Assembly: GCA_963823665.1 (NCBI GenBank)
Contig: CAWGMQ010000006.1
Span: forward strand, 1,790,865 to 1,822,864
Length of the DNA stretch: 32,000 nucleotides
Direction of reading: 5' to 3'
Source: an uncultured Planctomycetota bacterium
GTDB lineage: Bacteria; Planctomycetota; Planctomycetia; Isosphaerales; Isosphaeraceae
Part shown: positions 3,570 through 26,473 of the stretch, in pieces
Layout: each line of letters starts with the position of its first letter
How positions within the stretch are numbered: position 1 is the first letter of the stretch
Program-made: the position numbers and the translations under genes
The notes under the pieces: generated by a model
What the model saw: only the letters and a program-made list of their open reading frames with translations
What the model was told of the DNA's origin: nothing
The model's database searches: none

Positions 3570-5846
3570 TCATTCCACAGGCAAACGAGCGAACAGATCG
3601 GCAAGGGTTGCTTCGTAGTGTTTCCACCGCGCCAGTGACCGGCGATAGAGCGACTGGCGGACTTGCGTCACGCTGGCGGTTTGTACTGGTCGGACCGTTT
3701 GATGGAAGCGACCGCAGGCCGGCTCCCACTCCAGGCCGCACGCGGCCAGCAGGCGCCGGGCCTCGGTGTCGAAGTCATCGACCAGGTGTTCGTAAACCAC
3801 CTCATGCACCGGCACCGGCAACACGGTGCGCCAGTACTGCATCAGCCGTGCGTAATCACGGCAGCGGCCGGCCAGATGCTTGCGATCGTTGGTCCAGCGA
3901 ATGGTGCGGAAATCGGTCATCCAGCACGAGACCGCGACATCGCGCAGGTCACGGCGAACGTGGATGAAGGTCGCCCGGGGGAACAAGAGTGCCACCAGGC
4001 CCAGATAGAGGTAATTGTCCGGCAGCTTGTCCACGATCCGATCCTTGGCCGCGCCTGGTCCGACGGTGGGGAGGGTCCGGAGCAGCGCCTCGAGGCCGTC
4101 GCGGTGACGCCGGGTCAGTTGCCGCACGGCCCCCGTATCGAGGGCTTCCAGGCAGGGCAGCATCTGGTCGGGGCGGCCCAGTAGCTCGGGTATGGACACG
4201 AATTCCGCGTGGGCCAGGCCCAATTCGCCGGCGCCATGCACCCGCGAATGACTGGCCAGTACCTGCTCGACCAGCGTGGTGCCGGAGCGCGGCATGCCGA
4301 AGACGAACAGCGGCTGCCGGGTGTCGTCGCCTGCCCCTGCCAGGCGATCGAAGAGTTGCGGCGTGAAGCCCGCGATGATCCGGTCGACCAGTGCCGCATG
4401 CCCGTCGGGGTTGTAGTGTTTCCCCTGCTTGCGGCGCTGCGCAAGCGCCAGGGCATTGGCCTGTTCCAGGCAGTCGGCGGCCGCGGCGTACGCGCCCTGG
4501 GCGTCCAGCACCTGGGCCAGGCCGAACAGCAAGCTGCGACGCGCCGGCGAGCGAGGCGGTAGACTCCGATCGTCGGCGCGGCCGCGGCCGCTTCGCCCGA
4601 GCTGGGTTTCGATCGCGTCGCGGTCGATGTCGGGCAACTTGCCGCGGAGCAGCAACGCCAACCGAGCGAGCGGCCCCGGTGCCCGGGGATAGAGCGCCTG
4701 GGCCCGGCGATACCACGCCTCGGCCTCGGCCATATCCCCCAGCTCCTCGTGCAGGCCGCCACTGTTCAGGAGCGCATCCACATATTGTGGTTGCAGTTCA
4801 AGGGCCCGGCGATAGCAGGCGGCGGCCTCGGCGAACCGGCCCTCCTGTTGCAGCGCCCGGCCCAGATGGTTGTGCCCCGGGGAGTGCGTGGGATTCAGCT
4901 CGACGACCCGTTGCCAGCACGACAGCGCGGCGGCGCGGTCCTCGTCGGCGTCATGGGCGTTGGCCAGGTACTGCCACATCGCGGCATCGTCCGGAGCCAG
5001 CTCGACGGCACGGCGGAAGCCGGCATAGGCGTCGGCGCGCTTGCCTTCCAGGAACAAGGCCAGGCCGCGGTTGGCGTGGACCCGCGCCAGCTCACCCGGT
5101 CGCTCCTGGATCAAGCTCGCGGCGCGGAGGGCCTCGTCGTAGGCCGCCTGCGCTTCGCTCCAGCGTTCCAGGGCACGGTACGCGTTGCCCAGGTTGTTGA
5201 GTGCGGCCGGCCTTCGGGGCTCGAGGCGGACGGCCTCCTGGCAGTGCGTCAGGCCCTCCTCGGCTTCGCCCTGATCCACCAGCATCGCGCCGAGGTTGCT
5301 GCGGGCCAGGGGCAGGTTGGGATCGAGCGCGACCGCGGCGCGATACGCCCGGAGAGCCTCGCCGAGCTGACCCAGCTCGTGGAGAGACGTACCGAGGTTG
5401 TTCCGGGCCAGGGCGAAATCGGCACGCATCTCCAGCGCGGCGCGGAACTGCGCGACGGCCTCGGCAAACTGGCCCAGCGCATGCAGCGCGAGGCCGAGGT
5501 TGTTGGCCGCCTCGGGGTAGGCCTGTCGCAGTCTCAGGGCGGTCCGGCAGCAGTCAATGGCCTGTTGGTGCTGGCCGAGCGAGCGGTGGGCCTCGGCCAG
5601 GTTGGCGTGGTAAACGGCGGTATCGGGTTGCAGAGCCACCGCCCGGCCGATCAGCTCGACGGCGCGGGCAAAATACCCGTTCTGGTAATGCAGGACGCCA
5701 AAAAGGTGCAGGGCCTCGGCCTGGTCGGGCTGCCGGACGAGCAGGGTGTGATAAGACCGCGCGGCGTCGGCGAAGCGACCCTCCTGATGGAACTGCCAGG
5801 CGGTCGCGAGGTCGGAAGTGACCACGGTCGTCGCTCCGTGACTCAT
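3570..5846 (-). CDS. TPR-repeat protein with a C-terminal sulfotransferase domain (758 aa)
   Basis: Complete ORF. The N-terminal ~400 aa are TPR-type repeats (AEALHLFGVLHYQNGYFARAVELIGRAVALQPD, ANNLGLALHALGQFAEAVAQFRAALEMRAD, and others). The C-terminal part carries sulfotransferase PAPS-binding signatures FVFGMPRSGTTLVEQVL (5'-PSB loop) and FIHVRRDLRDVAVSCW (3'-PB-like). Confidence 0.9.
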   Translation of the reverse strand: MSHGATTVVTSDLATAWQFHQEGRFADAARSYHTLLVRQPDQAEALHLFGVLHYQNGYFARAVELIGRAVALQPDTAVYHANLAEAHRSLGQHQQAIDCCRTALRLRQAYPEAANNLGLALHALGQFAEAVAQFRAALEMRADFALARNNLGTSLHELGQLGEALRAYRAAVALDPNLPLARSNLGAMLVDQGEAEEGLTHCQEAVRLEPRRPAALNNLGNAYRALERWSEAQAAYDEALRAASLIQERPGELARVHANRGLALFLEGKRADAYAGFRRAVELAPDDAAMWQYLANAHDADEDRAAALSCWQRVVELNPTHSPGHNHLGRALQQEGRFAEAAACYRRALELQPQYVDALLNSGGLHEELGDMAEAEAWYRRAQALYPRAPGPLARLALLLRGKLPDIDRDAIETQLGRSGRGRADDRSLPPRSPARRSLLFGLAQVLDAQGAYAAAADCLEQANALALAQRRKQGKHYNPDGHAALVDRIIAGFTPQLFDRLAGAGDDTRQPLFVFGMPRSGTTLVEQVLASHSRVHGAGELGLAHAEFVSIPELLGRPDQMLPCLEALDTGAVRQLTRRHRDGLEALLRTLPTVGPGAAKDRIVDKLPDNYLYLGLVALLFPRATFIHVRRDLRDVAVSCWMTDFRTIRWTNDRKHLAGRCRDYARLMQYWRTVLPVPVHEVVYEHLVDDFDTEARRLLAACGLEWEPACGRFHQTVRPVQTASVTQVRQSLYRRSLARWKHYEATLADLFARLPVE

Positions 5847-7514: not shown

Positions 7515-8168
7515 ATGAGCGACATGTCACCACCGCCGGGACAGGTGCCGGACTTAGTCGCGCGCGCCGCGTCGGGCGACCGCGCCGCTATTGTCGAGCT
7601 GCTGGAGCGGTATCGCGGGCGGCTGCGGCGGATGGTGGCGATGCGCATGGATCCCAGGCTGCGCGGCCGCGTCGACGCGTCGGATGTCATCCAGGAGGGT
7701 TACCTCGAAGCCATGAACCGGCTCGAGGAGTTCATCCGGGACCCGTCCGTGCCGTTCTACATCTGGCTGCGGTTCCTGGTCGGCCAGCGGTTGCAGAAAC
7801 AGCATCGCCACCACCTCGGGACAACAGGCCGCGACGTTGGCCGCGAGGTTTCGATTTATCGGGGCGCGATGCCCGGCGCCAGCACAGGGGCCATCGCCGC
7901 CCGGCTCCTCGGCAAGCTGACGAGCCCCAGCCAGGCGGCGCGAAGGGCCGAGCGCAAGATGCAGCTCCAGAACGCGCTCAATCAGATGGATCCACTCGAC
8001 CGCGAGATCCTCGTGTTGCGGCACTATGAGCAGATGTCGAACGTTAACGCGGCGGCCGCACTGGGGCTGAACGAATCAGCGGCCAGCAAACGCTACACAC
8101 GGGCGCTCGAGCGGCTCAGGGAGATCATGGCCGCCTTGCCCGGGGGGATCTCCGAGGACATCCCATGA
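7515..8168 (+). CDS. ECF-type RNA polymerase sigma factor (copy 2, 217 aa) of the kind paired with a Ser/Thr kinase
   Basis: The sigma-2 region contains DASDVIQEGYLEAMNRLEEFIRDPSVPFYIWLRFLVGQRL. The sigma-4 HTH contains LDREILVLRHYEQMSNVNAAAALGLNESAASKRYTRALERLREI. The stop overlaps the kinase start (ATGA at 8165..8168). Confidence 0.9.
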   Translation: MSDMSPPPGQVPDLVARAASGDRAAIVELLERYRGRLRRMVAMRMDPRLRGRVDASDVIQEGYLEAMNRLEEFIRDPSVPFYIWLRFLVGQRLQKQHRHHLGTTGRDVGREVSIYRGAMPGASTGAIAARLLGKLTSPSQAARRAERKMQLQNALNQMDPLDREILVLRHYEQMSNVNAAAALGLNESAASKRYTRALERLREIMAALPGGISEDIP

Positions 8169-9574
8169 ACGCGCCAGTCGGCGATCGCGATCCGTTCGAG
8201 ATCGTTGCCGAGGCGTTTCTCGCGCGGTTCCGGGCCGGGGAGCGGCCCAGCGTGAACGATTACGCCGCAGAGCACCCCGAGCTGGCCGACCAGATCCGCC
8301 GGCTGCTGCCGGCACTGGTGATGATCGAGCGGGACGTGTCGATTGCCGAAGAGCCCGCCCTCGACCCCACCGAAGTGAGGGACCTGGCGGGCCCAAAGCC
8401 GGGCGACTCGCGACTCCTGGGCGACTACCGGATCGTCCGAGAGATCGGCCGGGGGGGCATGGGGCTCGTGTACGAAGCGCAGCAAATCTCGCTGGGACGG
8501 CGCGTGGCTTTGAAGGTGCTCCCCCGCCACGTGCTGCGCGACCACAAGGCGCTGCAACGGTTCCATCGCGAGGCCAAGGCCGCCGCGCGGTTGCACCACA
8601 CGAACATCGTGCCTGTCTTCGACGTCGGGCAGGAAGGTGAGCACGCCTTCTACACAATGCAGTTCATCGCAGGCCAGGCACTCGACCAGGTTATCGACGA
8701 GCTGGTGCGGCTCCGGAATCGCGTCGATCGGAATCCGCTCGAGAACGGCATGGGCGGGCGGAGGGATGCGTCGAGCGGCATGCGAACCGCGGCCACGGTG
8801 GCGGACGGCCCGCGAGGTGCCAGGCTAGGGCAAGTCGCCGAGTCCCTCCTGGACGGCCGGCTGGCGACCGGAGGGATGAAATCGGCCCCGGGCGGAACCG
8901 AGCGAATCACCGAAATTGCGATGACCGAGCCGGTCGAACCGGCAGTACCCCGCTCGACCGTGCTGCCGGGCGGCGCTACGCTCTCGCTGGTCGAATCCGC
9001 CTCGCGTCGCCAGCCATACTTCCGAAGTGTCGCGCAGATCGGCCGCCAGGTGGCACAGGGGCTCTCGCACGCGCACTCGCGCGGCATCGTGCACCGCGAC
9101 ATCAAGCCGTCAAACCTTTTGCTCGATACCGCGGGCGTTGTCTGGATTACCGACTTCGGCCTGGCCAAGGCCGAGGAAGACGGATTGACGGTTACCGGCG
9201 ACATCCTGGGGACACTGCGCTACATGGCGCCGGAGCGGTTCAGCGGCACAGGAGACGCACGCAGCGATGTTTACTCGTTGGGCTTGACGCTCTACGAATT
9301 GCTCACCCTGCGGCCCGCCTTCGAGACGTCCGACCGGCTCCGGCTCATCGAGGAAATCAAATCCAAAGATGCAGAGCGTCTCCGTTCGATCGACGGCCGA
9401 ATTCCTCGGGACCTGGAAACGATCGTTCGCAAGGCGATCGACAAGGACCCGGCGCGGCGGTATTCGTCGGCAGAAGCCATGGCCGAGGACCTTCGACGGT
9501 TCCTGGACAATGAGACAATCCGCGCGCGACAGAGCAGCAGCGTCGAGCGCGTACTGGCGCTGGGCACGCCGTAA
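8165..9574 (+). CDS. Ser/Thr protein kinase, catalytic-domain segment of a frameshifted kinase-TM-WD40 gene (copy 2)
   Basis: Hanks kinase motifs are present: GRGGMGLVYEA, VALKVL, HRDIKPSNLLLD, DFGLAK, YMAPE. The ORF ends ...ARQSSSVERVLALGTP*, whereas the paralogue continues ...[18 protein letters not shown]. Confidence 0.9.
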   Translation: MNAPVGDRDPFEIVAEAFLARFRAGERPSVNDYAAEHPELADQIRRLLPALVMIERDVSIAEEPALDPTEVRDLAGPKPGDSRLLGDYRIVREIGRGGMGLVYEAQQISLGRRVALKVLPRHVLRDHKALQRFHREAKAAARLHHTNIVPVFDVGQEGEHAFYTMQFIAGQALDQVIDELVRLRNRVDRNPLENGMGGRRDASSGMRTAATVADGPRGARLGQVAESLLDGRLATGGMKSAPGGTERITEIAMTEPVEPAVPRSTVLPGGATLSLVESASRRQPYFRSVAQIGRQVAQGLSHAHSRGIVHRDIKPSNLLLDTAGVVWITDFGLAKAEEDGLTVTGDILGTLRYMAPERFSGTGDARSDVYSLGLTLYELLTLRPAFETSDRLRLIEEIKSKDAERLRSIDGRIPRDLETIVRKAIDKDPARRYSSAEAMAEDLRRFLDNETIRARQSSSVERVLALGTP

Positions 9575-11888
9575 TCCCTGGATCGCCACGCTGGGCGCGG
9601 CGCTCGCAACACTGCTCCTGGCCGTGACGATCGCTTCGCTCATCGCGGTGGGCCGGTTTGCCGATCTGGCCACGCGTCAGGAGAACTCAGCGGCGGCAGA
9701 GCGATCGTCGCGCGTGGCGGCCGAGGCCGAAACTTACCGGGCGATGCTCAGCGAGGTCAGAGCGCTGCGAGCCGGTCGCCCGCTGGGCTGGCGCGACGGC
9801 GCCCTGGGCAACCTGGCCCGGATGACCAGGGCAACGACTCCGCGCCGCGATCTGGCCGAGCTTCGAAGCGAGGCGGTCGCCTGTCTCGGCGAGTTCGACA
9901 TTGTCGAAGTGGCGCGGCTGGAAAAGCGCGAGCAGCGGCTTTGGTCGCTTGCCTTCAGCCCTGACTCCCAGACCCTGGTCACTGCAACTCTCAACGGAGA
10001 CGTCGACCTCTGGGACGTAACGCGCAAGTGCCATCTCTGGCACGCCGCGGATCCGGCCGGCCAGATTCGGCCCAAAAACTGGCCGTCCATCGACGACCCG
10101 CTCATCAAGACTGTGTTCCTGCCGGACGGCACTTTGGGTCGGACTGCCTGGAGCCATCGCATTGAATTCCTTGACGCCAAGGGCCGGCCGACCGGTCGTC
10201 CGCCATTGAGCGGCGGTAAGGCCCAAGCGACTGGGCTGGAAACTGATCGCACGGGCCGTCGCCTTGCCGTCGGGTGGGATGACGGCCGCATCGAGATCCA
10301 CGATGCGGGCATGGGTATCGTTCGAACGATCGCCGGGAGCAGGCCCGATCTCAGGATCTTTGCAATGAGTCCAGACGGCCGGTGGCTGGCTCATCGTGGT
10401 CCGAACGATTCCGTCCAGATCCGTTCGATCGAATCCGAGGCACCGCCGGTGACGCTCGGGCGACATCGTGGTGAGATCACGTCTCTTACCTTCAGCCCCG
10501 ACGGCAACACCCTGGCCAGCACATCCTGGGACCACTCGGCGCGGCTGTGGGACGTAGCTCGCCGCGACGAACTCATGGCGCTCTACGGGCACAACGAAAC
10601 GGTGACGAGCCTCGCATTCAGCCCCGATGGCAACTGGATCGCCACCACGAGCCGAGACTATTCCGTGCGAATCTGGGAAGCCAGAACCGGCGAGACTTTG
10701 TCCTTGTTGCCGGGGCTGTGGTTCCGGCAAGTCGTCGCGTTCAGCCCCGACGGCCGTTATCTGGCGGTTGACGAGATTTCCAGATTTGGGACCGCCGCGC
10801 GCGCTCGACTTTACGAGCTCAGAGGCCGCCGCGCGCGGCGGCTGCTTGCCGGCCACTTGAATGGAGCCGAATGCCTTGCAGCGCACCCCGTCCTGCCCCG
10901 GTTCGCTTCGGGAGCCGACGATCATTGCGTCATCGTCTGGGACGCGGAGACGGGCCGTGCGCTAGAGCACTGGAGGGCCCACGTGCGGTTTGTCGGCGCG
11001 GTGGCGTACAGTCCCGATGGCAGCTTGCTCGCCACTGGACAAGGCGACCAGTCTTGCGAAGTTAAACTCTGGGATTCCGCGACCGGCTCGTTGCGCCATA
11101 CCCTCATGGGCCACGCAGCGCGCGTGTTTGCCATGACGTTCGACCACGCGGGCCGCCGGCTCGCCAGCGTGGACGGAAATGGAGTGCTGGTGATCTGGGA
11201 CGTGAACACGGGGCACATACTGCGCCGCGAGCCCGAGGGAACAGACATGGTTCGCGCAGTCGCCATCACGGAGGGAGATCGGTACGTTGTCACCGGTACG
11301 GGCTCGGGTCTCATTGTCTACGATCTGGATGGGAACGCACCGCCTCGAGTCATCCCGATTCCGCGGGGCGCGCGCGAATTCGTGATCGATCGCACGCGCG
11401 ATGATCTGATTGTCGCGGGCGCCGACGGTGCGCTCTCGCGAGTCTCGCTCCGCACTTTCGCCGCCGGCGAGCGGCTCGAGGCCGCGCACGACGGCGCGAT
11501 CGAAGCGATCGCAATCTCCGGCGACGGACGGATGCTGGCGACAGGAGGCAGAACGGACGGCCAGGTTTTTCTCCGCGATGCGCAGAGCTTCGACCTGCTC
11601 TTCGCCCTACCGCCGCGGACCGGGATCGTCAAGGACCTGGAGTTCGACGCTACCGGTCGATGGTTGGCGATGGCCGGCGCCGCTGCCGACATCACGCTCT
11701 GGGATCTGAACCTGCTTCACGAAGAGCTCGCCGCGATCGGTCTGGCCTGGGACCAACCGGCGGCCCCGATCGGGCCCGCGGCGAATCTGGCGGAAATCGC
11801 CGAGCGCGAAAGGCCAAATGTTCCGACCGTATGGCCCGGTAATCACGACCCTACCGAAATCGATGCAGCCAAGGGGCTTTCTCAATGA
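9552..11888 (+). CDS. TM helix plus WD40 beta-propeller segment, the +1-frame continuation of the copy-2 kinase gene (track ORF 9369..11888)
   Basis: From 9552 it reads [33 protein letters not shown] (TM helix). WD40-type repeats follow: LAFSPDSQTLVTATLNGDVDLWDV, LTFSPDGNTLASTSWDHSARLWDV, LAFSPDGNWIATTSRDYSVRIWEA, VAYSPDGSLLATGQGDQSCEVKLWD. There is no convincing start codon of its own at the homology boundary. Confidence 0.85.
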   Translation, partial: YWRWARRNPWIATLGAALATLLLAVTIASLIAVGRFADLATRQENSAAAERSSRVAAEAETYRAMLSEVRALRAGRPLGWRDGALGNLARMTRATTPRRDLAELRSEAVACLGEFDIVEVARLEKREQRLWSLAFSPDSQTLVTATLNGDVDLWDVTRKCHLWHAADPAGQIRPKNWPSIDDPLIKTVFLPDGTLGRTAWSHRIEFLDAKGRPTGRPPLSGGKAQATGLETDRTGRRLAVGWDDGRIEIHDAGMGIVRTIAGSRPDLRIFAMSPDGRWLAHRGPNDSVQIRSIESEAPPVTLGRHRGEITSLTFSPDGNTLASTSWDHSARLWDVARRDELMALYGHNETVTSLAFSPDGNWIATTSRDYSVRIWEARTGETLSLLPGLWFRQVVAFSPDGRYLAVDEISRFGTAARARLYELRGRRARRLLAGHLNGAECLAAHPVLPRFASGADDHCVIVWDAETGRALEHWRAHVRFVGAVAYSPDGSLLATGQGDQSCEVKLWDSATGSLRHTLMGHAARVFAMTFDHAGRRLASVDGNGVLVIWDVNTGHILRREPEGTDMVRAVAITEGDRYVVTGTGSGLIVYDLDGNAPPRVIPIPRGAREFVIDRTRDDLIVAGADGALSRVSLRTFAAGERLEAAHDGAIEAIAISGDGRMLATGGRTDGQVFLRDAQSFDLLFALPPRTGIVKDLEFDATGRWLAMAGAAADITLWDLNLLHEELAAIGLAWDQPAAPIGPAANLAEIAERERPNVPTVWPGNHDPTEIDAAKGLSQ

Positions 11889-11989
11889 AGAGGCCTCGCC
11901 CGCCGACCGCGAGCAACTCGAAGCGCGGGTCGTACGATACCTGAGGAGGCTGTTCAGGCGAACCGTCGCTTCAAGCATTTCCTCTCGAG

Positions 11990-14362
11990 CTAGGCTGGCT
12001 CAAGCGGGCGTCCGAAGCTGCGAAGTTGCGCGACCCGGAAGCCGTGGCGGCGAGCCGAATCGCGCAGGCGGCACAGACTCTCCGCCGTCAGGTCGGTACC
12101 AAGGCTGGAGTTTTGGAGATGCCCGTCCAAGGCCAGCAACATCGTCTCGGCCATGCAGGCATAAGCCAGCCCGGGTCCGAGCCCGAACCGACCGAGGTGA
12201 GGGCGGCCGGGGACTTCGATAATCCCGCCATCAATGATGAGCACATCGGGCCGCGCGATAGCGACTTCGGGGCCAACATTCGCCGGCCGCGACAGGTCGC
12301 AAACGACGGCCCCGGCCCGGAGCGATCCTGGGTTGATGATCGACCCGGTGGCGCTGGTGGCAGTGACAACCAGATCGGCCGACGGCAGGACCTCGTCGAC
12401 CGCTGTGGTCAGCATCAGGGCGCCCCGACGCTCCAGGCGGCCGACGAGCGCCGCGAACGCCTCGGCCGAGGCGTCAGGGTCGGGCGCCCCGCGGCACTCC
12501 GCCAGGAATCGGGCGAACAGCGAGCCCGAGACGAAGCTGCACCCTTGGCGGTAGCCCGTGGTCAGGTGCCGGCAGATGTCGGCGGCGACCGCCAGCAGCC
12601 GGCGGCGGATTGCGGCCGGGTCGCGGTCGGGGTTGCCGACGAGCGTGAGGCGGCCGACGTTTTCGGCGAGGAGCAGGGCAACCGCCCGCCCAATCGCCCC
12701 GCCCGCCCCGACAATCGTGGCTCGCGTAGCGGCGCCGAAGTAGCCGCCGAGGGCTACCACGGCTATCGCCGCCGCCTGGACCGATGACACGGCCGTGAAC
12801 GAGTTCCCCGTGGTTACCGGGATCCCTTCCCGCGACACGTCGAGGCCACCCCGGGTGGCGATCGACGTGAACGCACCCAGCCCAACGAGCTGGGCGCCGC
12901 GCGACCGGGCTAACCCCAGCGCGGCCCGAACGCCTGCGACCGCCTTACGACGTGGCATTGCTGCCATTTGCGCGGCGGTCCAGGGTAGCGCGATGAACTC
13001 GCCGAAGATCTTCTGGCCGCCCGCGGACGTGATCCGAGCCCGGCTGACAACGAACGGCTCGAGCAGGCCCGCAACGTCGCGGCCGACCGTCCGAAGCTCG
13101 TCCGAGTCCAGTACTTTGAGCGATGGGTCAAAGTCAGCGATGTTCGCGAAGACGGGCGTGAACAGGCCCTGTTCTGCGACCGCGCCCAGCAGGCTGTCGG
13201 GCCACAGATCGCGATTGACGCGGAACCGGACGCCTAGCATATACCCTCGTCCGCGAATTTCGGCGATCAGGTGCGGGTAACGGCGCGCCAGGGCCCCGAG
13301 CCGGCGACGCAGCCGCCGGCCGTTACGTGCGACCCGGCGGACAAGTCGGCGGTTGTCGCGGGTTAGCAGCTCCAGCGTCGCAAGGCCGGCGCGGCACGCC
13401 AGGGCGTTTCCGGCAAAGGTAGAGGAGTGCTTCATTGCGAAGGTTGACGTGTATGCCGCCTCGGAGCAGAGCACCGCTCCGATCGGAACCAAGCCGCCGC
13501 CAAGCGCCTTGGCGAGCGCCATCACGTCTGGAACCACTCCCTCGGCCTCGCACGCAAAGAGGGCCCCGGTGCGCCCCAGGCCGGACTGGATCTCGTCCAA
13601 GACGAGCAGGACGCCCGCATCACGGCAGATCGCACGCGCCTCTGCCAGGTACCCGCGGGGAGGCTCCACAATACCGCCTTCGCCCTGGATCGGCTCGACG
13701 AGGAACGCGGCGTAATGCGCCGGCCGCTCGGCGAGGGCGAGCCGCAGCGCGACGGCGTCTCCAAACGGAATCGCGTCGAAGTGTGGGGCGGGCGCCCCGA
13801 AGTCCTTCTGGTATTCGGCGTTGCCAGTCGCGGAGAGCGCCCCGAGCGTTTTGCCATGGAAGCTGCGGTCGGTTGATAAGATACCGAGGCGTCCCGTGGC
13901 GGCGCGGCAGAGCTTGATCGCTACCTCGATGGCCTCGGCGCCGCTGTTCGTGAATGTCACTCGCTCGAGGCCCTGTGGAGCGATCTCCACCAATCGTGCC
14001 GCGAGCTCCCCTGCGGGACCGACCAGCGAGGGTTGTACGAAGCTGGGCTCGCGTCGGTCGCGCACGCCCTCAAGCGCTCGCCAGATCGCGGCAGGGTTGA
14101 AGCCAAACGGCAGGGCGCCGTAGGCGGCGATGCAATCCAGGTAACGCCGACCCTCGTCGTCATAAAGTTCAGTTCCTTTCCCCCGCGCGAAATGCTTATC
14201 GAGGCGGATCCTGCCGAGGAGATCGGCCAGGTAGGGGTTGACGTGGCGGGCGAAGGGATGGGCCTCACTGAGGCCGCCGGATTCGTCCATCGGGCTAATG
14301 GAGGATGAGGAAAGCGGGCTGATTTGATCACCGTTCGGCTTCCCTGTAGGTGCGGTTTTCAT
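11990..14362 (-). CDS. Bifunctional fusion: a class-III PLP aminotransferase (N-terminal) joined to an acyl-ACP-reductase-like NAD(P)-dependent reductase domain (C-terminal); 790 aa
   Basis: The N-terminal half carries FTNSGAEAIEVAIKL, FLVEPIQGEGG, LVLDEIQSGLGRTG and DVMALAKALGGG, which are aminotransferase class-III signatures including the PLP lysine context. The C-terminal half carries LGAFTSIATRGG, VTTGNSFTAVSSVQAA, ATIVGAGGAIGRAVALLL (Rossmann), ADLVVTATSATG, VLIIDGGIIEVPG and AYACMAETMLLALDG. From memory these align with cyanobacterial acyl-ACP reductase (LGGFTSII, FTTGNTHTAYV, VAVVGATGDIGSAV, MFACFAEAMLLEFEG, which contains the catalytic Cys). Confidence 0.8.
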   Translation of the reverse strand: MKTAPTGKPNGDQISPLSSSSISPMDESGGLSEAHPFARHVNPYLADLLGRIRLDKHFARGKGTELYDDEGRRYLDCIAAYGALPFGFNPAAIWRALEGVRDRREPSFVQPSLVGPAGELAARLVEIAPQGLERVTFTNSGAEAIEVAIKLCRAATGRLGILSTDRSFHGKTLGALSATGNAEYQKDFGAPAPHFDAIPFGDAVALRLALAERPAHYAAFLVEPIQGEGGIVEPPRGYLAEARAICRDAGVLLVLDEIQSGLGRTGALFACEAEGVVPDVMALAKALGGGLVPIGAVLCSEAAYTSTFAMKHSSTFAGNALACRAGLATLELLTRDNRRLVRRVARNGRRLRRRLGALARRYPHLIAEIRGRGYMLGVRFRVNRDLWPDSLLGAVAEQGLFTPVFANIADFDPSLKVLDSDELRTVGRDVAGLLEPFVVSRARITSAGGQKIFGEFIALPWTAAQMAAMPRRKAVAGVRAALGLARSRGAQLVGLGAFTSIATRGGLDVSREGIPVTTGNSFTAVSSVQAAAIAVVALGGYFGAATRATIVGAGGAIGRAVALLLAENVGRLTLVGNPDRDPAAIRRRLLAVAADICRHLTTGYRQGCSFVSGSLFARFLAECRGAPDPDASAEAFAALVGRLERRGALMLTTAVDEVLPSADLVVTATSATGSIINPGSLRAGAVVCDLSRPANVGPEVAIARPDVLIIDGGIIEVPGRPHLGRFGLGPGLAYACMAETMLLALDGHLQNSSLGTDLTAESLCRLRDSARRHGFRVAQLRSFGRPLEPA

Positions 14363-14724
14363 CGGAGGCGTTCTCTTTCTGAGCAGGTCTGGACGAGCCG
14401 GAGCGCGCAGATTTCGGCGGCCGCCACGTTCATCCGCATTTCCCGCTGCGTTTGTTAGCCCGCAGGCCGGCCGGCTCGTCAGTGTCGTCCGGCGCCGAAC
14501 CAGGGCAGAAGAGCGGCGCCCGCAGCGGAATGAGCAAACGGCGAATCGCGCTCGCTCGCCGAGAGTTAGCCCGACAGAACGTTGACTGTCACACTCTCGG
14601 AATGGCTGCCGTCGGTCCTCTCCTCGACAGGAGATTCGGGTTGCTGAGCGTCTTGGCGATCAGTGACCCGATATCCCTTATCCGCGCGCCGATCAGAAAG
14701 CGTGACTGCCCGTCTTACTACTCA

Positions 14725-14974
14725 TACTGCGAGCCGACCGGAATGCTCGCCTGGCCTTGGCTTTTTTCGTCTCCGTTTGTTGAAACGGCGGGTTCCAGGG
14801 CGTTGCCCTGGGCTGATTTGTTACTGCCCCTTCGGGGCGAGGAGTCAGTCATTCGGCGACCGCCTCGTTAGAATCGACCAGAATCGGTTAGCCGGTTCCG
14901 CCGAGTCCCACGCGCGCAAGAACCGGGAGCCTTTTTTGTCTCCGTTTATTGAAACTCGCAGTACTGTAAGTACT
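14725..14974 (+). promoter_or_regulatory. Conserved sigma-gene leader, copy 3, carrying a 170-bp duplication/insertion
   Basis: 5' arm TACTGCGAG (14725..14733) followed by CCGACCGGAAT. 3' arm CTCGCAGTA (14955..14963) directly after TTGAAAC. The 25-26-nt block CTTTTTT(C)GTCTCCGTTT(G/A)TTGAAAC occurs twice, at 14761..14786 and 14931..14955. Confidence 0.5.
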
Positions 14975-15628
14975 ATGGACGAGCTGTCGCCACCTCCAGG
15001 ACAGGTCCCCGGAGTTGTCACGCGCGCCGCCGGAGGCGACCGGGCTGCTATCGTCGAGCTGCTCGAGCGCTACCGCGCCCGGCTGCGCCGAATGGTGGCG
15101 CTGCGGCTGGACCCCCGGCTCCGGGGGCGGGTCGACGCCTCGGACGTGATCCAGGAGGGCTATCTCGATGCGATGCGGCGGCTTGAGGAGTTCATCCAGG
15201 ATCCGGCCGTGCCGTTCTACATCTGGCTGCGGTTCCTGGTCGGCCAGCGGGTGCAGGAGCAGCACCGGCGGCACCTCGGCACCTCCGGCCGGGATGACGG
15301 CCGCGAGGTGTCGATCTACCGGGGCGCCATGCCCGGCGCCAGCACCGGGGCCCTGGCCGCCCGGCTGCTCGGCAAGCTCACGAGCCCCAGCCAGGCGGCG
15401 GTGCGGGCCGAGCGGAAGGTCCGGCTCCAGGAGGCCCTTAACCGCATGGACCCGCTCGACCGCGAGATCCTGGTCCTGCGCCACTACGAGCAGATGACCA
15501 ACGGCGATGCCGCCGCGGCCCTGGGGCTCTCGTTCAAGGCGGCGAGCAAACGGTACACGCGCGCGCTCGAGCGGCTCGAGAAGATCCTGAATGCCTTACC
15601 CGGAGACCCGGGAGGGCAGGGATCATGA
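14975..15628 (+). CDS. ECF-type sigma factor (copy 3, 217 aa)
   Basis: It starts MDELSPPPGQVPGVVTRAAGGDRAAIVELLERYRARLRRMVALRLDP and is collinear with copies 2 and 4 at the same length (654 nt). The longer track ORF from 14663 adds a non-conserved extension that overlaps the leader. ATGA overlap with the kinase stub at 15625..15628. Confidence 0.85.
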   Translation: MDELSPPPGQVPGVVTRAAGGDRAAIVELLERYRARLRRMVALRLDPRLRGRVDASDVIQEGYLDAMRRLEEFIQDPAVPFYIWLRFLVGQRVQEQHRRHLGTSGRDDGREVSIYRGAMPGASTGALAARLLGKLTSPSQAAVRAERKVRLQEALNRMDPLDREILVLRHYEQMTNGDAAAALGLSFKAASKRYTRALERLEKILNALPGDPGGQGS

Positions 15629-15702
15629 GCGAACGATCTGTCGATCGCGATCCCTTCGGGGGCATTGCCGAGTCGTTCCTGGCACGGTTCCGGACTGGTT
15701 AA
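15625..15702 (+). pseudogene. N-terminal 25-codon stub of the copy-3 Ser/Thr kinase
   Basis: [25 protein letters not shown] matches [29 protein letters not shown] of copy 4. DNA similarity stops at 15699/15700, where a TAA follows. Confidence 0.8.
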
Positions 15703-15863
15703 CCGTTTGTCGGAGCTGCAGCGTGGCTGACGGCTTCGCCGGGACCATTCTGGCCACTCCCTGCTGGGCCGGACTGATCGCGATCGACAACCCGTGTATA
15801 GCCATTCACATTTGCGCTTACATTTAAACAACGGGTTGCCACACTACCACACTATGTTTGGGA

Positions 15864-15892
15864 TTGACGAGATTCCTGCCGCCTTGTAGATA
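15864..15892 (+). promoter_or_regulatory. Candidate sigma70-like promoter for the methyltransferase gene
   Basis: TTGACG (15864..15869), a 17-nt spacer, then TAGATA (15887..15892), about 68 nt upstream of the ATG at 15960. This is a pattern match only, and the -10 box is weak. Confidence 0.25.
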
Positions 15893-15959
15893 GAGCAAGC
15901 CACCAAGCAGGCCTTTTTGCACCTTTGGTACAAGTGATCACACACAAGTGAGGCTCAAC

Positions 15960-16736
15960 ATGCCCCAAGTGAAACAGACGGGGGTCAGTGGTCGTGACCA
16001 TTACGACAGCCTTTTTCAGAATGAACTTGATCGAGAAGCGGAGTGGCTTGATCGCACCGCAGGACACAAGGCCGATTCGATAGAGCGGTTGCTCAAGAAG
16101 AACAACATCGAGTGTGATACCCTTCTCGAACTCGGGTGTGGCACAGGCTCGGTCATTCGTGAGTGTCAGCGGCGTAAAATTGCCAAGTCTTATATCGCAG
16201 TGGATTACTCCGACACCGCAATAGACTATTTGAACAGTAATTCAAACGAAATTGAAACACATTCATTTGATGTCACTTCAGAAGATTTCTCATTCAATAG
16301 GCCGGTTGATGTGGTTGTCGTGAGCCATGTCATCGAGCATCTCGAAGAACCGCTTGCCTTCTTGCAATCGTTGCGGCGCCTTAATTTCAAATACCTGGTT
16401 TCCGAGGTTCCGCTCGATGATCTACTTATGGGCAGGCTTAGCGCTTTGGCGAAGGAGGATCGGACTCAGAATCTTGCCGGTCACGTGCAGTTTTTCACAG
16501 CCTCATCGTTTCGCCGGCTATTAGAATCGAGCGGGATGAAGGTGATCGATACTCGCAGATATTTGCCATTACTCGATAGAGAGACAATCAAATTTGTGTG
16601 CAAGAAGAACAAATCTTCGAATCTAACATATTGCAAAATGCTGTTCGGTCGATATCTGAGGCTCGCATTGGGGCCGATCTGGGCCTATTTCTTTAGCGCA
16701 CATTACGCGGTGCTCTCTCGGTTCTCTCCGGAATAA
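15960..16736 (+). CDS. Class I SAM-dependent methyltransferase (258 aa from the ATG at 15960) in a low-GC islet
   Basis: SAM-binding motif I is LLELGCGTGSVIRE, followed by an acidic loop AVDYSD and VVVSHVIEHLEEP. The ATG at 15960 is preceded by GTGAGG; the track ORF starts at a GTG at 15948. GC is far below the flanks (22/60 at 16201-16260 and 30/60 at 16081-16140, against 48/60 at 15301-15360, hand counted). Confidence 0.8.
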   Translation: MPQVKQTGVSGRDHYDSLFQNELDREAEWLDRTAGHKADSIERLLKKNNIECDTLLELGCGTGSVIRECQRRKIAKSYIAVDYSDTAIDYLNSNSNEIETHSFDVTSEDFSFNRPVDVVVVSHVIEHLEEPLAFLQSLRRLNFKYLVSEVPLDDLLMGRLSALAKEDRTQNLAGHVQFFTASSFRRLLESSGMKVIDTRRYLPLLDRETIKFVCKKNKSSNLTYCKMLFGRYLRLALGPIWAYFFSAHYAVLSRFSPE

Positions 16737-16770
16737 CATCAAGGGCCACGCGAAACGGCACGGCCCCGAA

Positions 16771-18117
16771 CAGGAGGTCCGTGCGAATATCTCGCATTCA
16801 GCCCTGACGGACGATTCTTTGTCACGGGTTTCCGCTCTGCGGATCACGTGTGCGCCAAGCCCATCGACCTCTGGGACACCGCCTCGGGGCGAAAGCTCTC
16901 CTCGTTGCCGGGGACATTCGCTCCGGCCGCATTCCAGGCGGCGGGCGATTACCACGGACTGGTTCGGTTCTGGGATACGTCCAGCGGCCGGGAGATCGGG
17001 CAGCCGCTTCCTCAAAGGGAGATCGATCTGGCCCTGGCCTACAGCCCGGATGGCAAGACGCTGGCGGTGGGGCTCGCCGAAGTTTTTACACACAAGCCGG
17101 GCACTCGACTCTGGGATACCGCGACAGGCCGGCCCATCGGCGAATTGTTGCCCAGCGTTGCGGGCGTGACCCGAATCGAGTTCCGTCCGGACGGTCGCGC
17201 CCTGCTCACGTGCGGCGGTTCCACCCGGCTGTGGGATGCCGTCCGGGCGCAGGCAATGGGTGAAGAAATTATTGACGATCAGGCCGGCGGATTTCGTCCG
17301 GATGGCCGCGTATTCCTCACACTGGGATCGGACCGGTTCGACAAATCGGCCGCCGATTACCGTGAGGCCGAGCGGCTCGGTAAGCGAGACGATGTGCGGG
17401 ACTTCCAGATTCACTGCGTCGTCGATTGCACCAAGGCCGAGCGCTGGGCCGAGGCCCTCTGGTATCTCGACCGCCTGATCGCCGCACGGCCAGGGGACGG
17501 GACGCTGCACGAGGACCGCGCAGCGGTCTACGGCAAGCTCGGCCGCGAGGCCGAGCGCCAGGCCGAGCTGGCAAGCGTGTTTGCGCTGGGAGCTGACGAG
17601 GGGCTCGTGATCGCGCGGGCCGAGGAGCTTGGCCGCGGCGGCCGCTGGGCCGAGGCCGCGGGCCTGCTGGCGCGCGGCGGGAGGGCAGGCCCGCTCAGTT
17701 CGGTTCTGGCCCAGGCCTGGGGCATCGCCTGTCTGCGGGCCGGCGATCGCGCCGGCTACCGCGAGGCCTGCGCGGCGTTCATGGACTACCAGGGGCCGGA
17801 CCCGACGGTCGTCTGGAACGCACTCGCGGCGGCATCGTTCTTCGCCCTGGGGGCCGAGGGCCTGGACGACTACCGGGTGCCGATGCGATGGATCGAGCGC
17901 CGGCTTTCCGCCAGTCCCACGCTGAACCCCGTAATCAAACATTACTTCTCGAACGTTCTGGGAGGCCTCTCGCTCCGCGCCGGGCGGCTGGACGATGCGA
18001 TTGGCCGCGTCAACGAAGGAATTGCCGCCGCGAACCAAGTGGAACTGCCCACCGACTGGGCTCACCTGGCCCTGGCCCATGCGCTCAAGGGGAACCTGGC
18101 TGAAGCCCGCCGCGGTC
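16771..18117 (+). pseudogene. C-terminal debris of the copy-3 kinase (WD40 plus helical-repeat region) with two internal in-frame deletions and a 3' truncation (track ORF 16848..18206)
   Basis: GGPCEYLAFSPDGRFFVTGF...PIDLWDTASGRKLSSLPGTFAP is collinear with copy 4 at 23084 onward. It then jumps to GDYHGLVRFWDTSSGREIG (copy 4 near 24380). It jumps again from FLTLGSD to RFDKSAADYREAERLG (copy 4 near 25385). Similarity ends after LAEARR at about 18117. Confidence 0.8.
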
Positions 18118-18130
18118 ACGCCGGAGAGTC

Positions 18131-19260
18131 TCAGCCTCCGAATTCCACGATGAGGCCTTGCAGCAGGATGTTGGCCGGACCCGAGAGGGCCTCTGCCTGG
18201 GCCTGAGTCAAAATGCCGGCCTTGCGGAACGCGGCAACCTCACTCAGGAACGTCTGCACCTTGCTGGTGTCGCCGTTGTTGCCTTTAAGGATCAGCTTCA
18301 CACCGACGGAGTCGGCCTGCGCCGCGTTCAGCACCCCCGCCGCCTCCAGCGTTTCCACCTGTTCCTCGAGGTCGGCATCCTGCTGGGTCGATCGACGCCA
18401 CGGTGATCGCCACGCTGGCATCCGAGCTGATGTTGCCGAGGCTGACGGCGAGGCTCAGCGTGTCGGCGCCGCTGAAATTGAGGCCGCCGCGGTAGACCAG
18501 GGTGGCCAGGGCGGCTTTGAGCTCGACCGTGCTGCCGGTCAAGGACACCGAGCCGCTGCCGTTGCCGGTGGCCGTCAAGCCGCTGGTCGTCCCCAGGGTC
18601 AACGTGCCGTGGCCGACGGCGAGGGTGACCGTCAGGCTGCCGCTCTGCCCGCTGCCGATGGTGATGCCGCTGATGGCCTGGCCCACGTTCTCGTAGGCGG
18701 TCAGGGCGGCCGGGACGGTGATGGCCGGGCTGCCGGCCAGCAGGGCGATGGTCTTGGTCGGGCCGCCGTTGTTGGCCAGCCCGGCGGCCGCGAACTTCGG
18801 GCTGCCGATGCTGATGGCAGCGGTCCCGGGGGCCCCGGTCAACGCGCTCGACCCGGTTGCGTCCAGGCTGAGCAGGTCGTTTCTGCTGCCGGACAGTTTG
18901 GGGGCGCCGGCGCCATGGATGGCATTGGCGTAGAAGTCGCTGACGGTGGTGGTGCCGTTCTGGCCGAGGATGCTGTTGACGATCGTGGCCGTGGCGGTAG
19001 CGCCGCTGAAGCCGCTGCCGGAGCTGCTGTCGCTGAGAACGTAGACGTCGCTGGCGGTGCCGGCGCTGCTATTGCCGCTCGCGACGGCGTTGCCGCTGAA
19101 GGTGTCGAAGGTGGCGGCCAGGGTGCCGTTGCGTATGAAGACGGCGCCGCCGTCGCCTTGCCCCGCGCTGCCGTTGTTGCCGCCGCTACCGCCGGCGCCG
19201 GCGGTGGCCTTGTTCTGGGTGAAGGTGTCGTTGGTGAGGGTGAGTGCGCCGCCGGTGCTG
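18131..19260 (-). pseudogene. 5'-truncated, frameshifted paralogue of the beta-helix surface protein (pmp-like repeats plus a helical-hairpin tail)
   Basis: GGALTLTNDTFTQNKATAGAGG...GGAVFIRNGTLAATFDTFSGN...VYVLSDSS...IVNSILGQNGTTTVSDFYANAI parallels the 1..3473 protein (GGTLTLTSDTFTGNTAAGG...VYVLSDGS...VVNSILGQNASTTVSEFYASAI). There is no N-terminus or start codon. The tail QQDADLEEQVETLEAAGVLNAAQADSVGVKLILKGNNGD...LLQGLIVEFGG* is in a different frame (ORF 18131..18421), with the switch near 18386. Confidence 0.75.
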
Positions 19261-20319
19261 GTCGGCGTCGTAGGGCTGGTAACGGCTGCGGCGCAGCTCC
19301 CGGGCCAGGGCGTTGGCCGGCTCCAGGCAGGCGGCGGCCTCGGCGTGCTCGCCCCGCGCGTCGGCGACATGGGCGAGGGCAAAGAGCAGGTTCATCCGCA
19401 CCACCGGGGCGATCGGCCCGTGCATCGCGAAGCGGAGCCGGTCGCGGTCGGCCTCGGGCAGCCGGCCGCGCACGAGCACCGCCCGCCGCGCCAGCGGCAA
19501 CGGTGACTGCGGATGACGGGTCTCGGCCTCGTGGTAGCACGCCTCGGCCTCGGCCATGGCCCCGAGCTCCTCGTGCAGTGAGCCCAGGCTGATCCACGAG
19601 TCCAGGTGATCGGGTCGCAGCTCCAGGGCGCGGCGATAAGCGGCCTCGGCTTCGGCATGGCGGCCGTCGGACAGGTAGGCCCAGCCGAGCTCGTTGTGCG
19701 CGTCAGCATCGGCCGGCTTCTTCAGGGCGCGGCGCTCGCAAAGCTCAACCGCGGCGGGCCAGTCCTCGGCCTGGCCGTGGACGTAGGCCAATTGCAGCCA
19801 CAGGGCGTCATCTTCGGGGGCCAGCTCGGCGGCCCGGCGCGAATGCGCGAGGGCAACGACCGGCTTGCCCTGCCCAAGGAGCGCCAGGCCCAGGTTGGCG
19901 TGCGCGACGGCCAGGTCGGGCTCTAGCCGGAGGGCCTCGGCATAGGCATCGGCCGCCTCGGCCCACCGCTCCAGGCCGCGCAGAACGTTGCCGAGGTTGT
20001 TGAGCGCCTCGGGGTAGTCCGGCCGCAGGCGGAGGGCCGAGCGGCAGCTTTCGGCGGCTTGCTCGCGCTGGCCCAGGGCACGCTGGATCTCGGCGAAGTT
20101 GGCATGATACGTGGCGACGTCGGGCCGCAGCTCGATGGCCCTGCCCGTTAGCTCGACGGCACGGGCGGAGTAACCGCACTGGTGATGCAAGACGCCAAAC
20201 AGGTGCAGCACGTTAGCGTCATCAGGATCGCGGTCCAGCAGGGCCTGGTAGGTGCGGCCCGCGTCGGCGTAGCGACCGGCCTGATGGCATTCCCAAGCGT
20301 TCATCAAGTCCGGACTCAT
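19261..20319 (-). pseudogene. TPR protein paralogue that has lost its sulfotransferase domain (track ORF 19186..20319)
   Basis: MSPDLMNAWECHQAGRYADAGRTYQALLDRDPDDANVLHLFGVLHHQCGYSARAVEL... is collinear with 3570..5846 as far as ANALARELRRSRYQPYD (compare ANALALAQRRKQGKHYNPDG). The sequence then abuts beta-helix coding sequence in another frame. Confidence 0.8.
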
Positions 20320-20501
20320 CTTGTGACTCCGTCAAGAGCTGCGAGGTTCTGGTTGCATAAGGTCAGGATTGGTTGCACGGCGCGTGGACCGACCTCTCGG
20401 GGCTAACCCGCGGCGACAACGCGACGCTGGTGCTCCGCGGCTCAGACGCTGGTCATCACGATCCCTGGCGGGCCTTGTCCTCTCCTTGGGCTTACCACCT
20501 A

Positions 20502-20580
20502 TACTGCGAGGCGACCGCGATGCTCGCCTGGCTTTGGCTTTTTTTTGTCTCGGTTTATTGAAACTCGCAGTACTGTAAGT
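20502..20580 (+). promoter_or_regulatory. Conserved sigma-gene leader, copy 4 (most compact form)
   Basis: 5' arm TACTGCGAG (20502..20510) followed by GCGACCGCGAT. A T-rich tract follows, then TTGAAAC and the 3' arm CTCGCAGTA (20564..20572). The ATG lies 8 nt downstream. Confidence 0.5.
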
Positions 20581-21234
20581 ATGGACGAGATGTCGCCACC
20601 TCCAGGACAGGTCCCCGGAGTTGTCACGCGGGCCGCGGCGGGCGACCGGGCTGCGATCGTCGTGCTGCTCGAGCGCTACCGCGCCCGGCTTCGCCGGATG
20701 GTGGCGCTGCGGCTGGACCCCCGGCTCCGGGGGCGGGTTGACGCCTCGGACGTGATCCAGGAGGGGTACCTCGATGCGATGCGGCGGCTCGAGGAGTTCA
20801 TCCGGGATCCGGCCGTGCCGTTCTACATCTGGCTGCGGTTCCTGGTTGGCCAGCGGGTGCAGGAGCAGCATCGGCGGCACCTGGGCTCGCCCGGCCGGGA
20901 TGTCGGCCGCGAGGTGTCGATCTACCGGGGCGCGATGCCCGGCGCCAGCACCGGGGCCCTGGCCGCCCGGCTTCTCGGCAAGCTCACGAGCCCCAGCCAG
21001 GCGGCGGTGCGGGCCGAGCGGAAGGTTCGGCTCCAGGAGGCCCTTAACCGCATGGACCCGCTCGACCGCGAGATCCTGGTCTTGCGCCACTACGAGCAGA
21101 TGGCCAACGGCGATGCCGCCGCGGCCTTAGGGCTGAAGTTCAAGGCGGCGAGCAAACGGTACACGCGGGCGCTCGAGCGGCTCGAGAAGGTCCTCAATGC
21201 CTTACCCGGAGACACGTCAGGGCAGGAGCCATGA
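20581..21234 (+). CDS. ECF-type sigma factor (copy 4, 217 aa)
   Basis: MDEMSPPPGQVPGVVTRAAAGDRAAIVVLLERYRARLRRMVALRLDP...LDREILVLRHYEQMANGDAAAALGLKFKAASKRYTRALERLEKV. It is 654 nt long like copies 2 and 3. ATGA overlap with the kinase at 21231..21234. Confidence 0.9.
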   Translation: MDEMSPPPGQVPGVVTRAAAGDRAAIVVLLERYRARLRRMVALRLDPRLRGRVDASDVIQEGYLDAMRRLEEFIRDPAVPFYIWLRFLVGQRVQEQHRRHLGSPGRDVGREVSIYRGAMPGASTGALAARLLGKLTSPSQAAVRAERKVRLQEALNRMDPLDREILVLRHYEQMANGDAAAALGLKFKAASKRYTRALERLEKVLNALPGDTSGQEP

Positions 21235-26308: not shown

Positions 26309-26473
26309 TCCCGGCGGCATTCGTCCGACAAGCGGCTTCCGAACGCGATCTCGATTCGCTCCGAAACTACGCCGATTTCCGGGCGCTCAATGCCCGACCG
26401 GACTGTCCCACGCGATCCATTCGCTCGACCGTGACGACCTCAGTCTCATTTTTGTCTGGGCGCCGCCACTGAT

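Follow-up and report, generated by a model that had tools for sequence, protein, structure and literature searches.

One-protein routes from an acyl thioester to an amine are an experimentally established enzyme class. TamH is a natural fusion of a transaminase to a thioester reductase (TA-TR), and its TR was classed as an acyl-acyl carrier protein (ACP) reductase (AAR) with a G707xxG710xxG713 loop and a cysteine, C887 (Richardson et al. 2022, PMC9594044). With its partner TamA, an ANL-ACP protein, TamH takes dodecanoic acid through C12-ACP and the C12 aldehyde to dodecylamine, using NADH and L-glutamate (PMC9594044). In PigE, an AAR-like thioester reductase domain (26% identity to AAR, conserved Cys296) forms the N-terminal part and a class-III transaminase the C-terminal part (Couturier et al. 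2021, PMC8341465). Lysate containing PigE turns a 3-acetyloctanoyl thioester into H2MAP, for which a reduction and then a transamination are needed (PMC8341465), and AAR itself works through a covalent acyl-Cys intermediate and hydride transfer (PMC7089970). Here we describe a gene of this kind in a 32,000-nt stretch of contig CAWGMQ010000006.1 (GCA_963823665.1), hereafter the window, from an uncultured planctomycete. By sequence and fold, the gene joins a class-III aminotransferase to an AAR-like thioester reductase. The copy in the window is probably a recently damaged member of the TamH/PigE kind, a young pseudogene whose product is likely misfolded or inactive.

An earlier note on this DNA had proposed the fusion as a candidate one-protein route from acyl thioester through aldehyde to amine. 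That logic is right for the family, as TamH and PigE demonstrate; because their biochemistry is already published, the fusion idea is not new.

Class-III aminotransferase and AAR-like thioester reductase domains in one protein

All coordinates are positions in the window, with position 1 its first letter. The open reading frame (ORF) runs from ATG to stop and encodes 790 aa, as the earlier note had it, and all four motifs quoted there were located: DEIQSGLGRTG at aa 256, ALAKALGGG at aa 282, VGAGGAIGRAV at aa 551 and AYACMAETMLL at aa 733. The fusion gene occurs once within the window, which bears out the claim that it is single-copy. The GC content of its 790 codons by position is like that of a real gene (GC3 0.79 vs GC2 0.54, in a window of ~68% GC). 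The closest named relatives are Singulisphaera and Gemmataceae metagenome-assembled genomes (MAGs). Intact orthologs of the protein are 903-905 aa long. The features of the gene, from its 5' end to the gap region downstream of it, are as follows.

11990..14362, minus strand: 790-aa ORF, a lesioned copy of a TA-TR (omega-transaminase/AAR-type thioester reductase) fusion gene
13145..14260, minus strand: class-III (omega) aminotransferase domain (aa 35-406), cut short at the C-terminus, with the last ~50 residues of the fold gone
13508..13510, minus strand: codon of Lys285 in ALAKALGGG, the predicted PLP (pyridoxal phosphate) Schiff-base lysine; a conserved column, aligned to YgjG and PigE
13144..13148, minus strand: junction of an in-frame deletion of 303 bp (101 codons), with 5 bp of CGCGA microhomology at both borders in intact relatives
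11993..13144, minus strand: AAR-like thioester reductase domain (aa 407-790) without the initial beta-strand 'RFAFLxHP', whose AAR counterpart is residues ~1-11
12802..12816, minus strand: TTGNS motif (aa 517-521), where the N-terminal and nucleotide-binding sub-domains join; the AAR counterpart is 'FTTGNT'
12680..12712, minus strand: dinucleotide-binding loop VGAGGAIGRAV, aa 551-561 (GxxGxxG), which aligns with the AAR loop 'vGAtGdIGsAV'
12155..12157, minus strand: codon for Cys736 of AYACMAETMLL; the residue is the predicted acyl-enzyme nucleophile and aligns with the catalytic-Cys motifs of AAR and PigE
11990..11992, minus strand: premature TAG stop, GAG (Glu892) in the intact copy on contig L081 and Glu in P0123, the product of the copy on contig L082
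11954..11989, minus strand: leftover of the original last 11 codons with the native TGA, in frame past the TAG (translation '...PLEPA*LERKCLKRRFA*')
11884..11953, strand not assigned: short gap region between the fusion gene and a WD40 gene, where ~219 bp and ~295 bp of L081 are absent

In profile searches, the two halves score best against the same curated family. Over the whole protein, Pfam places Aminotran_3 at aa 59-418 (E = 3e-82) and finds only a marginal Shikimate_DH match in the C-terminal half. The best NCBIfam model for the entire protein is PigE (NF053554), which is matched in three stretches totaling 543 bits, with the aminotransferase half on profile positions 380-729; an intact ortholog scores 548 bits, and both values lie far below the equivalog cut-off of 850 bits. 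When the C-terminal 382 residues are searched by themselves, their hits are the N-terminal portion of the PigE profile (E = 1.8e-46, 159 bits, best stretch 203-346) and the cyanobacterial acyl-ACP reductase model TIGR04058 (E = 3.8e-20, 72.5 bits, below its cut-off of 449.7 bits). The rival profiles trail behind, with Shikimate_DH at 4e-6 (27 bits) and hemA at E = 1.4e-4 (21 bits). Among PDB sequences, this half matches full-length PigE (4ppm, 3e-29) and AAR (6jzq and 6jzu, ~6e-18).

Structure comparison gave the same picture. The top 50 hits of a full-length fold search were all aminotransferases, and the C-terminal half was therefore modelled separately. Its AlphaFold2 (AF2) model (pLDDT 89.8, pTM 0.89) has the AAR structures 6jzy and 6jzu as its top Foldseek matches (E = 2.7e-17, TM 0.67/0.75), with the AAR-related carmabin terminal amidation domain (TAD; 9e4u) as runner-up (E = 5e-11, TM 0.67/0.61) and generic NAD(P) dehydrogenases at 2e-4 or worse. 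The transaminase half is closest to putrescine aminotransferase and PigE, and PigE is the top structural match of the transaminase fold (39-40% identity). A glutamyl-tRNA reductase (GluTR) or shikimate dehydrogenase identity of the C-terminal half was considered and ruled out by the profile scores together with the Foldseek ranking. It was this identity, an ordinary dehydrogenase scoring better and lacking the Cys context, that the earlier note had set against its own assignment; the profiles, the Cys alignment and Foldseek all favor the AAR-like domain that it proposed. The boundary it drew needs correction, as the domain starts at aa 407 and not at ~450, with the first beta-strand missing.

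The residues expected to carry catalysis are conserved in alignments of the window protein with 7 homologs (8 sequences) and of 60 sequences. The column of K285 is invariant in the former and near-invariant in the latter (at least 90% of the sequences), and it aligns with the lysine of 'lakalggg' in YgjG and of 'lsKslsgg' in PigE. By analogy with the aminotransferase family, K285 is the predicted lysine of the PLP Schiff base. In the reductase half, T517, T518, G519, N520 and S521, the glycines G552, G555 and G558, and C736 are invariant among the 8 sequences, and C736 is invariant among the 60 as well. PDB sequence alignments put the Cys of AYACMAETMLL onto the Cys of FACFAEAMLL in AAR and of GCMAETIVLAL in PigE, numbered C294 and C296, respectively, in the literature. 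The equivalent TTG motif of TAD touches the catalytic Cys (bioRxiv 10.1101/2024.10.28.620694).

Comparison with described systems

TamH is like the window gene in having an N-terminal class-III omega-transaminase and a C-terminal AAR-like TR, with a linker of roughly 50 aa, and the GxxGxxG loop and catalytic Cys are found in both. The spacing of the PLP lysine, the GxxGxxG loop and the Cys is also close, K285-G653-C837 in an intact ortholog (368 and 184 residues) vs K340-G707-C887 in TamH (367 and 180, taken from published residue numbers only). TamH differs in its length of 941 aa and in its location in the Pseudoalteromonas tunicata cluster for the bipyrrole pigment tambjamine YP1, beside its ANL-ACP partner TamA. 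The window gene, unlike TamH, is without biosynthetic neighbors, is internally deleted, and comes from a different and much wider clade. PigE, from the MAP pathway of Serratia prodigiosin synthesis (NF053554, 4ppm), is the best-scoring curated family for both halves and shares the conserved Cys. However, its domain order is TR-TA where the window gene has TA-TR, its substrate is a 3-acetyloctanoyl thioester, and PigD, PigB and other pig genes are not near the window gene.

The remaining systems resemble the reductase half or the overall logic. AAR (TIGR04058; 6jzq, 6jzu, 6jzy) shares the three-sub-domain fold, the GxxGxxG loop, the TTGN motif and a Cys in an 'ACxAExMLL' helix. It is a stand-alone protein of 341 aa that passes its aldehyde to the aldehyde-deformylating oxygenase (ADO), it is only 21-24% identical to the window domain, and unlike it the window copy has no equivalent of AAR residues ~1-11. 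In the pair formed by GluTR and glutamate-1-semialdehyde aminomutase (GSAM), a Cys-dependent (thio)ester reductase likewise hands an aldehyde to a class-III PLP enzyme, and the folds are distantly related; the analogy between PigE and GluTR-GSAM was drawn by Couturier et al. (PMC8341465). GluTR and GSAM differ from the fusion in being separate proteins with a tRNA-bound substrate, their PLP enzyme is an aminomutase, and the hemA model is matched here only at the E-value given above. The TAD of the carmabin and vatiamide nonribosomal peptide synthetases (NRPSs; 9e4u) has an AAR-like fold, an invariant Cys, a TTG motif, NAD binding and carrier-bound thioesters (bioRxiv 10.1101/2024.10.28.620694). 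In contrast to the window domain, TAD is an NRPS terminal domain and a proposed amide maker with no transaminase fusion, and it is a weaker match than AAR.

The window copy carries a 101-codon deletion and a premature stop

Homologs of the window protein are ~100 residues longer. Comparison across the 8-sequence and 60-sequence alignments and with other short homologs revealed that the window protein alone lacks a block of 101 residues, between aa 406 (…LFTPVF) and aa 407 (ANIADFDP…). Three relatives that are ~97% identical (P0002, P0122 and P0123) all retain it. Two environmental contigs, L081 and L082, carry near-identical intact orthologs (P0002 and P0123, respectively, each 903 aa), allowing the event to be traced in the DNA. 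On the upstream side, window 14497..13144 corresponds to L081 2246..3597 at 97.5% identity, and on the other side window 13148..11952 corresponds to L081 3896..5092 at 97.6% identity. The resulting 303-bp gap relative to L081 recurs relative to L082. In the intact gene the borders of the deleted block read …TTCGCGA/GCTACC… and …GACGCGA/ACATCG… (the slash marks the border), and the window junction reads …TTCGCGAACATCG…. The 5 bp of CGCGA microhomology are the signature of a deletion by illegitimate recombination or slippage. We looked for the deleted 303-bp block elsewhere in the window and did not find it.

In the intact protein the missing block is residues 407-507, and it takes in conserved parts of both domains. 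It contains 11 invariant columns (L410, N411, R416, P419, L421, R428, P431, L433, R496, F499 and H502) and many that are near-invariant in the 60-sequence alignment. Mean conservation is 0.71 for the deleted part of the transaminase and 0.73 for the deleted start of the reductase domain, beside 0.73 and 0.62 for the retained transaminase and reductase domains and 0.36 for the 36-residue linker. In the AF2 model of the intact ortholog (pLDDT 89.4, pTM 0.86), the block spans the end of helix 401-413, strands at ~415-429, helices 437-455 and 459-468, the linker, and strand 495-501. The last of these is the first strand of the N-terminal sub-domain of the reductase, the counterpart of the MFGLIGH start of AAR, and in AAR this sub-domain (residues 1-130) contributes to the acyl tunnel (PMC7089970).

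On the transaminase side, the intact protein can be aligned to YgjG, the putrescine aminotransferase of E. coli, through residue 456, with '…TLN…IRIEPPLT…' common to both. The lost segment includes the conserved 'VAPTLNG..VIRIEPPLT', whose VIRIEPPL motif is also found in YgjG and PigE. In class-III aminotransferases, the arginine of the IRIEPPLT motif presumably binds the alpha-carboxylate of glutamate/2-oxoglutarate (GabT R398, OAT R413). The putrescine-aminotransferase profile is covered over positions 79-458 of 464 in intact P0002 vs 79-403 of 464 in the window protein. The aminotransferase had been described in the earlier note as complete, and the gene as intact; neither description holds, as the last ~50 residues of the transaminase fold are deleted along with the rest of the block and the protein then ends 12 residues early. 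That early end is the second lesion, a GAG->TAG change 12 codons before the native TGA, which stays in frame. The full-length architecture with both folds complete is present in P0002 and P0123 and absent from the window copy.

Because the deletion runs through conserved parts of both domains and is accompanied by a premature stop, the product of the window copy is most likely misfolded or inactive, judging from these lesions. A natural short isoform was considered and rejected, as the remaining short homologs still have the block and are short through N-terminal truncation or a frameshift. Frame damage is also seen in two other close planctomycete relatives of the fusion protein: P0035 (692 aa, from a 164-kb contig) is frameshifted within the GxxGxxG region, and P0122 (720 aa) is damaged at both ends. 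Such copies suggest either that the gene has decayed repeatedly in this lineage or that these assemblies contain systematic indel errors.

We propose the following model. In intact members of the clade, an acyl thioester bound to a carrier protein or to CoA would be transferred to the conserved Cys, NAD(P)H would reduce the acyl-enzyme to an aldehyde, and the fused transaminase would convert the aldehyde to a primary amine with an amino-acid donor. By likeness to the characterized enzymes, these members presumably use fatty acyl-ACP or acyl-CoA. In the lineage of the window, a microhomology-mediated, in-frame deletion of 303 bp would have taken the last conserved elements of the transaminase fold together with the linker and the reductase's first strand, and a nonsense mutation would additionally have cut the final 12 residues. 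The outcome would be a young pseudogene that can still be read as one long ORF in a region of rearranged or frameshifted neighbors.

Alternative explanations

Several observations weigh against reading the window copy as a pseudogene. All 790 codons are still open and the deletion is in frame. The catalytic motifs that lie outside it (the PLP lysine, GxxGxxG, TTGN and the Cys) are all kept, and the C-terminal half still gives a confident AlphaFold model, although AF2 is insensitive to lesions of this type. The terminal branches of a three-taxon comparison carry 8:11 synonymous:nonsynonymous changes in the window and 21:13 and 29:20 in the relatives. These counts are suggestive and fit a very recent loss of constraint without proving it, since the surplus of nonsynonymous changes in the window falls short of significance (Fisher p = 0.20). 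With its frame open and these motifs kept, the window gene could be a functional, naturally shortened variant in which the deletion mainly trims a flexible linker and the protein can still turn an acyl thioester into an amine. Within the block, the 36-residue linker is indeed poorly conserved and has lower pLDDT, and pairwise dN/dS between the window and L081 is 0.28. However, the linker makes up only about a third of the block, the rest being ~51 conserved transaminase residues and the invariant 'RFAFLxH' strand of the reductase; none of the other homologs inspected shares the gap, and the same gene bears a second lesion in its premature TAG. We therefore consider a working short form unlikely, and a decayed gene the better description of the copy.

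It may also be that the deletion and the stop belong to the assembly or its consensus, or to a minority haplotype, and that the organism's real gene is intact at 903 aa. The source resembles a long-read MAG, the contig of one close relative is labelled 'np', several window genes are split where a close relative has single ORFs, a pattern expected from long-read indel errors, and related contigs carry frame-damaged copies too (P0122 and P0035, above). What makes such an artefact improbable is the form of the lesions: a clean 303-bp loss flanked by a 5-bp direct repeat, plus one G->T substitution, is atypical of homopolymer indel errors, the flanks align gap-free at 97.5%, and the missing block is nowhere else in the window. 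A further possibility concerns the chemistry and not the state of the gene. The substrate, cofactor and product of the planctomycete/Firmicutes clade are predicted from homology to TamH and PigE. Its C-terminal domain could instead carry out a TAD-like amidation, or be another NAD-dependent enzyme, in which case the fusion would not lead from thioester to amine. TAD is the second-best structural match and has the invariant Cys and the TTG motif in common with the window domain. Nevertheless, AAR is the better match in fold (2.7e-17 vs 5e-11) and in sequence, and the nearest characterized relatives, PigE's N-terminal domain (159 bits) and TamH, are thioester reductases paired with the same class of transaminase. 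A fused omega-transaminase that accepts aldehydes is, moreover, chemically sensible only if the reductase yields an aldehyde. A non-reductase role thus seems very improbable, and we retain the view that the window holds a young pseudogene of a thioester reductase-transaminase fusion.

The fusion gene lies in a rearranged neighborhood

The monocistronic fusion gene converges with a WD40 gene and diverges from an extracytoplasmic function (ECF) sigma gene. No AMP-binding, PP-binding, PigD, PigB or other biosynthetic genes were found among the window ORFs. None of the 20 ORFs is ADO-like in a Pfam scan, in agreement with the earlier note, which had reported no oxygenase partner. The window instead contains three ECF sigma and Ser/Thr kinase-WD40 modules, tetratricopeptide repeat (TPR) proteins, a TPR-sulfotransferase, and a MarR regulator beside a major facilitator superfamily (MFS) transporter.

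The note had also described the neighbors as decaying. Split and rearranged neighbors relative to L081 and L082 support this, and the fusion gene itself shares in the decay. Just downstream of it, ~219 bp and ~295 bp of L081 are missing, and the WD40 ORF terminates at one of the junctions. An extra segment of ~6 kb (~14544-20476) adjoins the fusion gene and is absent at this position in L082. Within it lie another copy of the sigma factor, a methyltransferase of low GC (52%), a WD40 fragment without a kinase part and a TPR gene. The methyltransferase (15948-16736, plus strand) is SAM-dependent (Methyltransf_23, E = 3.5e-20), with 52% GC in a region of ~68% GC; as it lies in a segment that L082 lacks at this position, it is probably a foreign insertion. 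The paralogous ECF sigma and kinase-WD40 modules are located at 7515-11888, 14663-18206 and 20545-26308, the middle one without its kinase part. In two of the modules the kinase-WD40 gene is broken into overlapping ORFs (8165-9574 with 9369-11888, and 21231-23759 with 23426-26308) where L082 has one ORF of 1693 aa, which could reflect either real decay or long-read indel errors.

Other differences and features lie further from the fusion gene. A MazE/PemK toxin-antitoxin pair and a small ORF, found at 2622-3211 of L082, are absent from window 26308-26472, between the kinase-WD40 gene and the MarR gene. The TPR-sulfotransferase (3570-5846, minus strand) is a 758-aa protein with many TPR repeats and a C-terminal sulfotransferase domain (Sulfotransfer_3, E = 1.8e-36). 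At the end of the window (29000-32000) the GC content drops to ~0.59-0.61; no ORF there reaches 165 aa, codon-position GC gives no convincing signal, and neither tRNAs nor Rfam families are matched. Scans for tRNA and Rfam over the whole window likewise found nothing.

TA-TR fusions are widespread and mostly outside recognizable natural-product clusters

A word-indexed protein search returned 4022 proteins at E <= 1e-10, of which many likely match the aminotransferase half only. Almost all of the best 120 of these 4022 are 870-930 aa long, and they come from many sources. In a scan of one genome per species, relatives were found at at least 557 loci. They are spread over Planctomycetota, Bacillota (Symbiobacterium, Thermaerobacter, Syntrophomonadaceae and Peptococcaceae), Myxococcota, Actinomycetota (Rhodococcus and Pseudarthrobacter), Pseudomonadota (Pseudomonas), Atribacterota, Acidobacteriota and others. 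These loci are usually outside recognizable natural-product clusters. An exhaustive HMMER search with the reductase half alone matched 2614 clusters (50% identity) at E <= 1e-3 and 387 at E <= 1e-30.

The reductase occurs in several architectures. It is found as a stand-alone TR (P0134, 427 aa) and in ANL-ACP-TA-TR (P0137, 1599 aa), TA-TR-ANL (P0147, 1423 aa) and TR-ANL (P0244, 949 aa) arrangements, and in one protein an ANL, a class-I/II aminotransferase and a second ANL-ACP precede TA-TR (P0155, 2624 aa). As the TR is fused here to AMP-binding and PP-binding domains, acyl-thioester substrates are supported at the level of the family. These 'Rosetta-stone' fusions place the TamA and TamH pair in one polypeptide and lend independent support to activated, carrier-bound acyl groups as the probable substrates.

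To look for partner genes, we surveyed the ORFs within 8 kb of the fusion gene at 65 related loci (63 of them in the fusion-gene cluster) and clustered the 918 proteins. Across the 63 loci, no conserved partner gene is shared between lineages. The largest neighbor clusters cover 13-14 loci of a single Firmicutes group and were judged by eye to resemble M16 peptidases, prolyl-tRNA synthetase (ProRS), 5-formyltetrahydrofolate (5-formyl-THF) cyclo-ligase and the like. The survey yielded no hint of the substrate. Further contexts were also read by eye. In Syntrophomonadaceae the TA-TR gene sits amid housekeeping genes. In Rhodococcus (L034, L038, L041 and L043) an intact TA-TR gene lies directly 3' of an mce-like operon with five Mce-like paralogs and two small membrane proteins, and in Pseudomonas (L048, L049 and L072) it is near a fatty-acid-desaturase-like gene, an FtsX-type ABC permease and a LolA-like gene. 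The gene contexts in Rhodococcus and Pseudomonas hint at a possible lipid-related role.

Implications

For the window gene itself there is little to gain, as its chemistry is known from TamH and PigE and the copy is probably dead. It is of use as a cautionary case: a long open ORF with all of the textbook motifs may be a young pseudogene, here exposed only by comparison with close relatives.

The family to which it belongs is of broader interest, since the TamH-type architecture is far commoner than the pigment pathways in which it was characterized. Our literature search on the wider TA-TR clade found nothing beyond the TamH, PigE, TabE and TAD papers. The orphan clade could constitute a general bacterial route, not described before, by which fatty acyl-ACP or acyl-CoA is turned into free long-chain primary amines or the head groups of amino lipids, one that the lineage of the window has just lost, although we regard this only as a tentative reading that is less probable than not. 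Such enzymes may be of interest as fatty-acid-to-amine biocatalysts or for bacterial amino lipids yet to be recognized, and the intact 903-aa orthologs P0002 and P0123, not the window copy, are the sequences suited to this work.

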